Made by a program: the position numbers and the translations under genes. A stretch of 18,665 nt of DNA from Pseudomonadota bacterium. Its GTDB lineage: Bacteria; Bdellovibrionota_B; Oligoflexia; Oligoflexales; CAIYRB01. Of the stretch, positions 1,940 through 5,200 are shown one piece after another; positions within the stretch are counted from its first letter, which is position 1; each line of letters opens with the position of its first letter. The notes beneath the pieces are model-generated. The model saw only the letters and a list, made by a program, of their open reading frames with translations. It searched no databases and had not been told where the DNA came from. The stretch is taken from positions 1-18,665 of the forward strand of contig JANOTL010000205.1 in assembly GCA_031416315.1 (NCBI GenBank), given 5' to 3'.

Positions 1940-2281
1940 TCAATGTCTGGACAGGTTTCCACGGACGGTCGCGTCGCACAGTGACCCGAACCTTGCAATC
2001 GCATGCGCCACGGCCGCGGCGGGCACTCGGTCCGCGATCTGGGACTCGATCCTAGCGGCGACTCGGCTTAGCTCGGGGAATCCGTAACCGCCGGACGACC
2101 CGGCGAGCTGGTGCGCCAGGCTCGAGACTTTTTTCCAGTCCGATTGGCGCTCGGCCTCGCGCAACGCCGCCACCCGCTCCGGTAACCCGCGAACGAACCC
2201 GTCGACCAAGGGGCCAACGACTGGATGATCGTGCAATTCCGAGCGGCGCGCCTCCTCAGAGGACCTCAGAACTTTTTTTTT
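1940..2281 (-). CDS. HPt domain in the -1 frame relative to the upstream hybrid kinase (candidate frameshifted C-terminal extension of 2266..6354)
   Basis: Frame reads KKKVLRSSEEARRSELHDHPVVGPLVDGFVRGLPERVAALREAERQSDWKKVSSLAHQLAGSSGGYGFPELSRVAARIE...RH*, homologous to the HPt of 1162..1938. No ATG between the A-run and the HPt core. Confidence 0.85.
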   Translation of the reverse strand, partial: KKKVLRSSEEARRSELHDHPVVGPLVDGFVRGLPERVAALREAERQSDWKKVSSLAHQLAGSSGGYGFPELSRVAARIESQIADRVPAAAVAHAIARFGSLCDATVRGNLSRH

Positions 2282-5200
2282 GCGAGCCGTGCGACGGTTT
2301 CGACCAGCAAATTGGCTTTGACCGGCTTGCTCAGATAGTCGTCGCAACCCACCGAGAGGCAAGTGTCTCGCTCTCCACGCATCGCGTTTGCCGTGAGCGC
2401 CAGGATAGGAAGCGCGCAGCCCTTGGCGCGCAGCTGTTTCGTCGCTTCGTACCCATCCAGGATAGGCATTTGCATGTCCATCACGACGAGGTCGTAGGCG
2501 TTGGCTAGGCAAAGCTTGACCGCGGCGGCTCCATTCTCGGCCGACGCGACGATGGCCCCGCTCGCGGTCAAAAAGTGCGTCATCAGGATCTGATTGTCCG
2601 GTCCATCCTCGACGAGAAGGATCCTCAGGCCGGCGAGCCGCTTGCTGGCGTCGAACGAGTCGCAAGGGTCGTCGCCACGCACTTTGAGGCTTTCTCGCGA
2701 CACCCCGCTCAGCATGGGAATGCCCACGAGCGGTCCGGGATCCAAAGTGAAGGTGAACGTGCTGCCTTCCCCGATGCGGCTCTGGGTGAGCGCCACGTCG
2801 CCGCCGAGGAGCTCGGCCAAGCGCCGCGATAAGATGAGGCCGAGCCCGGAGCCGCCGAATTTGCGCGTGACCGAGCTATCCGCCTGGCCGAAGGGCTGAA
2901 AAATCCGATCTTGCTGGGCCGAGGTGAGGCCGCATCCCGTATCGCTGACGACGAAGGTCAGAAGGGCACGAGGGGCGCTCGGCGCTAAGCTGACGGTGAT
3001 TCTGACGCCGCCTTTGGCGGTGAACTTGAGGGCATTGCCGCCAATGTTCAGCAGGATCTGGCGCAGGCGCATGGGGCACGCTGAGATGGACTCCGGAATC
3101 TCGCCGTCGAAGTCGACATCGAACGCCAGGTCACGGGCAGTCGCTCGGTCTTGAAGCAGAGTGAAGGTGTCGCTGAGCTCGGGCAAGAGGGCGAACTGGA
3201 CGCGGTCGATCTCGAGCTTGCCGGCCTCGATCTTCGAGATGTCGAGAATCTCGTCGATCAGCTCGGTCAATTGCTCGATGTTTTTCTGAATGCGCGCGGT
3301 GCAATGCAGGACGTCGGCCTTCGTCTGCTCGGGGCCGGCCAGAAGCTCCGAATAACCGAGGATCGCGCCGAGGGGCGTGCGGATCTCATGGCTCATGTTA
3401 GCGAGGAAATCGCTCTTGGCCTGGTTCGCCGCCTCGGCCGCGTCTTTGGCGTCCGTGGTTCTCGCTTCGGACTTCTTCTCCTCGGTCACGTCGTCGATCG
3501 CCAGCAAGATCCTTGCGGCGCGGTCGCTCTTCTGGACGAGCCTGCGGGCATTCAGCCGCATGACCCGCCGGCCGAGCCCCGGGAACTCGTCGTCGATGAT
3601 GAAGTTCTCCAAGCGCTCGTTCTTCGGCAAGATCTCTTCGAGGAGGGCGCGTAGCATCGGCGTGTTCCAGGAGCCCTTGCCGAGCTCATAGATCTTGGCG
3701 TTCCGGATTTCGCTCAGCGTCACTTGGAACAGCCGACAAAAGGCCTCCGTCGCCGTGACGACCTTGAGGTCGCCGTCGAGGACGAGCAGCGGTACGGGAG
3801 CGGTCTCGATGATCGCTTCCGAGTATTCGTGCGCTTCGGTGATCTGGTCAAAGCTGCGCTTCAGCGGGTCGATGTCGACGAGCACGATGACGGCGCCGTC
3901 GATCCGGTTGTCGCCCGTCCTGTAGGGCTTGATGCGCAGGGAAAACCAGCGACCGTCCGAGTCCTGGATCTCCAGCTCCTTGGTGTTGAGGGACTCGATC
4001 ACCTCGGCCGCCAAGGCCGCGAGCCCGGAGACCCGAAGTTTTGGCGCGATTTCCGCCAGGGATTTGCCGACGTCCGCTTCCGAGAAATTCAGGACTCGTT
4101 CCGCCGACTGGGTGAACCGGCGAATGCGGAGCTTTTCCGAGAGCATCACGATCGGAATGTTGGTCGCGCCGAAGAGGTTCGTCAGGTCGTTGTTGACGCG
4201 ATTCAGCTCCTGAAACCGGCCTTGGACTTCTTCGTTGACCGTCGTGAGCTCTTCGTTGGTCGCCTGGACCTCTTCTTTCGCAGTCGCCATCTCCTCGTTG
4301 GTGCTCTGCAGCTCCTCGTTCGAGGAAAGAATCTCCTCGCTCGCGGACTTCAGCTCCTCGTTGGCCGCCTGCTCTCTTTCGATGATGGCGTTGAGGTACT
4401 CTTTCGTCTCGCCGAGCTCGCGCAACAAGCGGCGGTTCTCGGTCATTTCGTCCGGAGACGGCGCTGCCGCGCTCGCCGCGGACGTGACGCCCGGGGCAAA
4501 GAGGACGACGAAATGACGAAGGTTCGTCGCCGAGGCTAGGAACGGGACGACGTCGACGCTGACGGGCGCAGGCTCGTGATTCGACGTCCTGATCCAAGCG
4601 GTCTTTTTTACGGGCGCGCCGGAGCCGTCAGCCTCGTGGATCGCCGAACGCAGCTCGACGAGGAGCCCCTCGGCGCACATCTTGAAAAGACTGGCGGTGA
4701 CCTCCCCGGGTGGGTGGAGGAGGTAAGGTCTCGTGTCGCCGCGGAATTGCAGGACCTCCATCCGGTCGTTGATCACCACGCCCGGGGGCGTATGCTTCGC
4801 GAGAATGGCTTTTTCCGCGTCGTTCCTGATGTCGAACTTCGTCGCATTCTCGCCGCGCCCGCCGATGCCGACGGCGCTCGCCGGCAGCTTCTCTGCGAGC
4901 GCGTCCATTGCGAAGTTCGGTGCGCGTGCGCTGCGCGCGGCCTGCTTCCGCACGAAAATCTTCCCCGCCTTGTCGACGACGTCGAAGAGCTCCGTCGCGT
5001 TGCCGATGGTCTCGGCGTTTCCGAGAGCGAGAAAGCCCTCGGCATTCAGGGCGAAGTGAAAGGCCGAAAGAACGCGTTCTTGGAGGGCCGGGGACAGGTA
5101 AATGAGGAGGTTGCGGCAACTGACGAGATCGAGCTTCGAAAACGGCGGGTCTCGAGCCACGTTTTGCTTGGCGAAAATACAGGGCTCTCTGATCGTCGAG

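Follow-up and report, generated by a model that had tools for sequence, protein, structure and literature searches.

A conserved A9–A10 run at the receiver/HPt boundary of a CheBR hybrid kinase family from Oligoflexia: a candidate RNA-polymerase slippage site

Introduction

Whether a single gene can supply a hybrid histidine kinase both with and without its histidine-phosphotransfer (HPt) domain is the question raised by the 18,665-nucleotide contig JANOTL010000205.1 from an Oligoflexales bacterium (hereafter the window; contig C205 of bin G000, 6.36 Mb, 65% GC). On its minus strand, a CheB-CheR-PAS-HisKA-HATPase-REC hybrid kinase, termed K1, terminates at a run of nine adenines (A9) directly after its receiver (REC) domain, and an intact HPt domain follows one base out of frame. 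Our tentative answer, which we favour over the alternatives considered below, is that the conserved run is a site of RNA-polymerase slippage, from which kinases with and without HPt would be made from one gene.

The frame shift at the 3′ end of K1

K1 (1362 aa; 2266..6354, minus strand) matched the Pfam families CheB, CheR, PAS, HisKA, HATPase_c and REC, with the motifs GASAGG and LSGTGTDG in CheB, NMSHEIRTP in HisKA, and LLVED, MDMQMP and KPV in REC. As reported in a first-pass annotation of the window, which named no strand, the gene ends GCA AAA AAA AAG TTC TGA after REC, which gives the C-terminus ...ARLAKKKF. The A9 run (A AAA AAA AAG; T9 on the plus strand) occupies 2273..2281 of the minus strand at the REC/HPt boundary and constitutes the candidate slippage site, and the TGA stop of the unshifted frame (2266..2268, minus strand) lies one codon past KKK. 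The HPt tail (1940..2272, minus strand) is encoded in the -1 frame by 110 codons (2272–1943) followed by a stop (1942–1940). It scored 45.2 bits against Pfam Hpt (PF01627; cut-off 24.6) and keeps the HQL histidine, with the phospho-acceptor codon at 2111–2113; a PDB sequence search returned a single marginal match, 3myf (E 0.01). Methionine and ATG are absent throughout the tail, in agreement with the earlier description, which nonetheless overlooked several non-ATG codons. Possible weak starts in the HPt frame (2234..2269, minus strand, from the codon list) are a CTG overlapping the stop (2267–2269) and a TTG at HPt codon 13 (2234–2236), the latter preceded by GAGGAGG (2251–2257) at a distance of 14 nt; further in-frame candidates are a TTG at 2209 and GTG codons.

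Computed translation with one added A (A10) gave a product of 1471 aa, the full relay protein anticipated for a shift, and A7 gave 1470 aa; with A9, A8 or A11 the products were 1362, 1365 or 1366 aa, all ending no more than five residues past the last lysine. In the shifted reading, the 18-residue REC-HPt linker is colinear with that of the neighbouring REC-HPt gene, as previously claimed. The His-Asp-His set of K1 is complete (HisKA histidine, HATPase, REC Asp/Thr/Lys and HPt histidine), the HPt being reached only via the -1 frame. The neighbouring REC-HPt gene (258 aa; 1162..1938, plus strand; sequence and Pfam) is convergent, in frame and without an A-run. Its stop and that of the shifted HPt tail lie 1 nt apart (window 1938–1940), with no terminator-like site between them, and a promoter and terminator scan of window 1000–6700 gave matches at chance level.

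The one-base shift was checked against assembled sequencing data. A unitig of 3194 nt from run X1, with a depth of 9.1, spans window 53–3246 including the A9 run with 0 differences and 0 gaps, and the indel listing for X1 at the A9 site contained none, even at 1%. X1 is possibly the source run, so that this check is not necessarily independent, and contigs drop rare variants; the unitig makes an assembly slip unlikely and excludes an assembler slip, though not a library artefact. The site was covered by X1 alone, as runs X2–X4 had no coverage there. Across G000, runs falling within the last 30 codons of an open reading frame (ORF) numbered 0/12 for A8 and 9/79 for A7, compared with a baseline of 7.2%; homopolymers do not break genes across the bin.

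The A-run across the family

Of the phylum's 131 genomes, 17 gave a total of 21 matches in a kinase-REC profile search, and two loci were added through the HPt domain (G001, a deletion relic, and G035), resulting in 23 loci, 21 junctions of which were read as DNA. G017 and G000:C155 were left out of this count; on a separate reading, C155 had neither run nor tail. Relatives of the K1 gene were found in Oligoflexales, Oligoflexus and Silvanigrellaceae, several of them in the order to which G000 belongs. P0022, P0128, P0040, P0008, P0121 and P0122 are known as proteins only and were used as hints. A metagenome sample (4 of 64 parts, 79 loci) contained no close family member, with best segments at 33–52%, and 401 sampled Bdellovibrionota-type genomes gave four weak matches, all without run and without tail.

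A further domain follows REC at 13 of the 21 junctions, comprising HPt in ten and a second REC in three (one cut short and seen by eye), and none follows in the remaining eight. Every junction encoding KKK (eight of eight) has A9 or A10, never a shorter run; the other 13 have A6 at most, and no tail-less gene (0/8) has a run longer than A3. Among the eight run-bearing genes, the HPt is out of frame in three, always by -1, namely K1 (A9), G038 (A10) and G052 (A9), and the tail is in frame in five, namely G021 (A10), G103 (A9), G001 (A9), G073b (A10) and G058 (A9). Orthologs are thus not all in frame and the X1 unitig reads A9, so the findings that would have refuted the switch proposed in the first-pass annotation were not obtained. 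From the REC KP motif to the HPt start, the three shifted genes, which represent three families, lack one base relative to G021 and G103. The five in-frame genes keep A9–A10 in two different phases. The heptamer A_AAA_AAG is in frame in K1, G052 and G001, and A_AAA_AAA in G038, whose A10 is followed by G; AAG is missing from five of the eight runs. An in-frame tail is present in 18 of 30 family proteins, 15 of which carry KK or KKK at the site; the other 12, including P0022 (VVKKKS), terminate early.

Identity at the four-fold sites of seven run-bearing genes was 22–35% in 20 of the 21 pairs and reached 47% in the closely related G073b and G058, so synonymous sites are saturated. The first two lysine codons of KKK are AAA in all seven genes. 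Of four other conserved lysine columns, three contain both AAA and AAG, and the remaining one has AAA in six genes, with K1 showing AAG at all four; the AAA share of lysine codons in G000 is 26%. Given KKK and the lysine usage of each gene, the chance of a run of nine or more was 3e-5 over six lineages treated as independent (G058 and G001 left out). In the non-domain frames of the eight run-bearing genes, a stop occurs within 0–6 codons in 16 of 16 cases, with a background-rate product of 6e-8 for six genes under the same treatment; of the run-less tail-bearing controls, one of six passes this 6-codon test (G073a, a close relative of G073b). Within G000, the run of K1 is the sole A9 or longer in 4070 crude ORFs (5.07 Mb), compared with 6.5 ± 3.1 expected from synonymous shuffling; A6 was observed 422 times against 291 expected, and A8 12 times against 23. 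With modest numbers, this fall-off with run length is that expected of slippage-prone runs (PMC1088944). Judged from these sequence comparisons, the A-run is recurrent and conserved at the nucleotide level beyond the need of the protein, that is, under nucleotide-level constraint.

K1 and G038 have out-of-frame HPts that are 54% identical to each other (61/77/33% by codon position), share the same stop position, and are 62–64% identical (K1, 62%) to the in-frame HPt of P0122, the closest relative of K1 (73%). By these measures they are as conserved as in-frame HPts, with no sign of decay. Overall, fused, shifted, coupled and free HPts all occur in the CheBR kinase family.

Several observations concern single members of the family. 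In one clade (L067, L062 and L059, from G073 and G058), a second REC takes the place of HPt after the same KKK/A-run; an AAC interrupts the run in G073a. In L004 (G001:C137), of the same genus, a relic kinase jumps from HATPase to the last 30 REC residues and then has A9 and an in-frame HPt, which indicates either a deletion or a misassembly. L013 (G013:C9), a REC-HPt gene, has two single-base frame breaks at short homopolymers and probably reflects assembly error or decay.

Proposed slippage by RNA polymerase

In the proposed mechanism, RNA polymerase would realign on the A-run and generate mRNAs with 8, 9, 10 or more A. For K1, mRNAs with A10 (or A7) would encode the 1471-aa (1470-aa) relay form, and those with A9, A8 or A11 the short forms of 1362–1366 aa. 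Genes with an in-frame tail would produce mostly the long form and some short form by slippage, like T. thermophilus dnaX, and the long/short ratio would be reversed in genes that are one base short (K1, G038 and G052). A one-base indel in the DNA would retune the isoform ratio instead of killing the gene, which would explain the recurrence of the -1 state. The long form would, from what is generally known of two-component systems, relay His-Asp-His to a regulator. The short form (His-Asp), devoid of its own HPt relay, may pass phosphate to a separate HPt, such as that of the REC-HPt neighbour or the one on G000:C24, or may act as a sink. The run, the frames, their conservation and the early stops are properties of the genes themselves; that the polymerase realigns and yields mRNAs with variable numbers of A is what we infer from them. 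The two-isoform proposal of the first-pass annotation is strengthened by the conservation of the run and by how soon the other frames stop. Polymerase slippage is favoured because the length of the run (9–10 A) is conserved rather than its phase or AAG, because no stimulator was found and because slippage has precedents. With rather more reserve, we suggest that the Oligoflexia CheBR family carries a selected A9–A10 slippage site that yields a two-step and a phosphorelay kinase, with one-base DNA changes setting the ratio and the same socket toggling a second REC in one clade.

Nine A is a length that many genomes select against and at which T. thermophilus dnaX slips (PMC1088944), two-ORF dnaX genes have 10 A, and an A9 cassette from Mg-chelatase gave 40% shifting (PMC3711429). 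Slippage favours insertion (PMC6260861), and G000 encodes MutS and MutL. The paralog K2, which has only A6 and a second indel in its HPt, also speaks for slippage.

Several points weigh against this mechanism. In E. coli, the polymerase is less prone to slip on runs of A than on runs of T (PMC6260861). The run is dispensable, as it is absent from five of the 13 tail-bearing genes. Both probability products (3e-5 and 6e-8) take lineages to be independent. The 6-codon cut-off was set after the data had been seen, which makes the early-stop result supporting rather than decisive, and the run-less controls G035 (7, 3) and G070 (11, 6) nearly pass it. In the trees, obtained by quick searches with SH-aLRT (Shimodaira–Hasegawa-like approximate likelihood ratio test) support only, the -1 genes are not joined with support, and two to three changes are needed; given the unsupported tree and the in-frame P0122, each shift may be recent and the conservation of the HPt inherited. 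The HPt of G052 has its own ATG overlapping the stop (GTC ATG A) and a diverged N-terminus, and is 43% identical to that of P0018, compared with 68% for the kinase. The second REC of G058 is cut by a stop after 37 codons despite the kept run, and the G001 copy is a deletion relic. The dnaX gene of G000, with a 634-aa open frame, is not among the 17 A/T runs of nine or more in this bin and lends no support to slippage.

Outside the kinases, a second gene family (signal peptide, Lys/Ala-rich region, membrane anchor and C-terminal domain) has a -1 shift at an A12 run in G000:C50:16597-16608 (L238). Its G011 ortholog (L246) has a -1 shift at an A10 run about 18 codons further on; of nine other homolog loci, eight have a single open frame, and that of G001 is cut by the contig end. 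Frame transitions at runs of nine or more are thus -1 in three of three kinases and in two of two genes of this second family, which fits slippage-prone A-runs in these bacteria but also a mutational hot spot.

Paralog K2, stand-alone HPts and neighbouring genes

K2 (1392 aa; 11621..15799, minus strand; sequence and Pfam) is a CheBR hybrid kinase 60% identical to K1, with only A6 (11667–11672) at the junction. Its broken HPt tail (11342..11670, minus strand) continues in the +1 frame after A6, contains a GGAGGT-7 nt-ATG element (11653–11638) and has a second indel at G5 (11527–11531). An X1 unitig over the tail (11030–11883) showed 0 differences, and an almost identical out-of-frame tail ends P0008, which comes from another contig. 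The K2 tail is, as far as its sequence indicates, one case of HPt decay where the run is short. Nanopore-type homopolymer noise, suspected from the two indels of K2, was ruled out by the X1 unitig and the positions of the A7 and A8 runs in G000. The REC domain of K2 has TAP where relatives show TAH or TAN.

Stand-alone HPts occur at two further places. G000:C24:1545-1985 (L242) encodes an intact HPt that is similar to the 3′ end of K2 and precedes a HATPase-REC ORF with a short N-terminus; it looks like a rearranged copy. P0121 is a called stand-alone HPt of 108 aa that is 58–64% identical to the HPts of K1, G038 and P0122.

Among the neighbours of K1 and K2 are KaiC, a gene with CheB only, and a third hybrid kinase. 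Upstream of K2 (window 15796–18199, minus strand) lie a KaiC-like ATPase (516 aa) and the CheB-only gene, with a GC content of 50–54% compared with 60–64%; between these two genes, window 16530–16570 contains a short tandem repeat that reads PDPTR in one frame and SGRVG on the opposite strand.

Alternative explanations

Of the alternatives listed in the first-pass annotation, polymerase slippage and phase variation were retained and a base-calling error was found unlikely; separate initiation of the HPt, for which G052 and K2 provide grounds, had been overlooked.

A switch or hot spot at the DNA level is possible, if doubtful. Here, slipped-strand mispairing would toggle the HPt between cells or lineages, or would repeatedly knock out a dispensable HPt, and a -1 cell would have essentially no long form. 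The scatter of in-frame and -1 alleles on the tree is explained equally well in this way, and phase variation would also account for the kept run. Against this reading, run lengths stay at 9–10, and each of the three shifts found there goes by -1. ON and OFF alleles do occur among relatives (three of eight out of frame, five in frame), but in distant genomes rather than strains, and no length variants were seen in the X1 contigs at depth 9, rare variants being dropped by contigs. A DNA-level switch or hot spot is in keeping with the spare HPts of the genome, with the decayed tail of K2 and with the 12 of 30 family proteins that end within 32 residues past the REC KP motif, several as KKKF, KKKS, KKS... 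or KKR...; pure decay, however, leaves a run kept at saturated synonymous sites unexplained. In addition, a phase-variable hybrid kinase, bvgS, is listed in supplement file 2 of PMC3711429, whereas the presence of MutS and MutL argues against this reading, and the missing base of G038 may lie beside the run, since a change of GTT TTA to GTT TA would yield the KKKVL of K1.

Fission of the gene, with the shifted HPt made as a small protein of its own by re-initiation or from an internal start, like RcsD-Hpt in Yersinia pestis, is unlikely as a general explanation; from the codons available, G052 is likely to initiate its HPt separately, whereas the case for K1 and G038 is weak. The ATG-TGA overlap and the diverged HPt N-terminus of G052 were described above, K2 has its GGAGGT-7 nt-ATG element together with an intact stand-alone counterpart on G000:C24, and P0121 is a free HPt of the K1 type. 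K1 offers the CTG overlapping the stop and the TTG at codon 13, and RcsD-Hpt itself starts at AUU (PMC10191623). Nevertheless, K1 has no ATG, and its TTG is poorly spaced, at 14 nt from the motif resembling a Shine–Dalgarno (SD) sequence. The 16S 3′ end was not found in G000, and SD-like motifs were therefore judged without the host anti-SD. In the HPt frame of G038, ATG, GTG and TTG are absent before codon 34, which is inside the domain, leaving only ATA, ATT and ATC, and both codons aligned to the CTG and TTG of K1 are TTA. Fission also leaves the run in the in-frame genes unexplained.

Programmed -1 ribosomal frameshifting on A_AAA_AAG, or ribosome sliding on poly-A, appears improbable. The -1 direction fits, the heptamer is in frame in K1, G052 and G001, and A_AAA_AAG is among the most efficient motifs in E. 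coli when stimulators are present (PMC4066793), but motifs without stimulators reach only 2.1–10 times a 0.055% background in the same source. The absence of an upstream SD and the weakness of downstream hairpins, both reported earlier for K1, were borne out: no upstream SD was visible at the junctions, and z-scores ranged from -0.15 to 0.17 for downstream folds in five of five genes and from -1.0 to 0.6 for upstream folds in three of three, these values covering folds only, with pseudoknots and distant signals outside their scope. Sliding is robust at A11 and slight at A9–A10 (PMC4363877). The earlier emphasis on the ribosomal heptamer is weakened further by the A10 G of G038, by the two phases of the in-frame runs and by the five runs without AAG, and the heptamer arises by itself when A-AAA-AAA-AAA-GTN loses one A.

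A homopolymer under-call in sequencing or assembly, with ordinary fusions as the true genes, is very improbable: each of the five transitions (three kinases and two genes of the second family), all from metagenome bins, lacks one base at or next to a long A-run, and X1 may be the source run with its library type off record, but its unitig has no gap over 3194 nt, 0 of 12 A8 and 9 of 79 A7 runs lie near ORF ends in G000 (baseline 7.2%), A9–A10 is called in frame in five other bins, and the truncated G052 protein is present in two sources. Slippage, DNA-level change, separate initiation and ribosomal shifting could also coexist, as in rcsD of Y. pestis.

Relation to known systems

Judged by its layout, the K1 site would work like dnaX-type recoding and is a candidate for the PTR (programmed transcriptional slippage) class; proven bacterial slippage genes include a replicase subunit, IS (insertion sequence) elements and Shigella secretion genes. 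T. thermophilus dnaX and the two-ORF dnaX genes likewise have A9–A10 near the 3′ end, close stops in the other frames, in-frame as well as shifted orthologs, and products that differ by a C-terminal domain (PMC1088944, PMC3711429). In dnaX, however, slippage is proven, at about 50%, whereas K1 is a signalling kinase with a candidate site and a toggled HPt or second REC. The Mg-chelatase frameshift genes share the -1 transition at an A-run, with fused orthologs elsewhere and the A9 cassette that shifts at 40% in E. coli (PMC3711429), but they encode an enzyme, number 23 in six genera and were tested with reporters, whereas the shifted kinases with DNA number three, each with a putative slippage site. 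The -1 frameshift of E. coli dnaX and IS3 is similar in that A_AAA_AAG is in frame in three of the eight genes (PMC4066793), but differs in that no SD or structural stimulator was found in the K1 family and that run length is conserved and the heptamer is not.

Two signalling systems offer further parallels. In Bordetella bvgS, an indel in a C-run inactivates the kinase in the pathogen. The likeness lies in a hybrid kinase switched by a homopolymer indel (PMC3711429, supplement file 2); by contrast, the A-run of the K1 family spares kinase and REC and touches the last domain only. In Y. pestis rcsD, a phosphorelay protein loses its HPt through a frameshift, recoding yields about 1% of full-length protein alongside a stand-alone HPt from a non-ATG start, and signalling is altered, not lost (PMC10191623). 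This is one recent allele in one species, whereas the K1-type site recurs across several families, is kept in in-frame orthologs and lies exactly where REC meets HPt in a complete hybrid kinase. The full-text literature searched contained no report of the CheBR family or of the A-run site, rcsD being the nearest; subscription papers were mostly outside this search, as was supplement file 1 of PMC3711429, which may hold cluster lists.

As gene callers record the short kinases, the relay form is missing from protein databases. If the proposed mechanism is true, a conserved site that adds or removes HPt would let the cell tune its phosphorelay architecture without a second gene, and recoding would set the wiring of a two-component circuit. 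The site would also show concretely how HPt modules can be gained and lost, and Yersinia rcsD would be less of a one-off.

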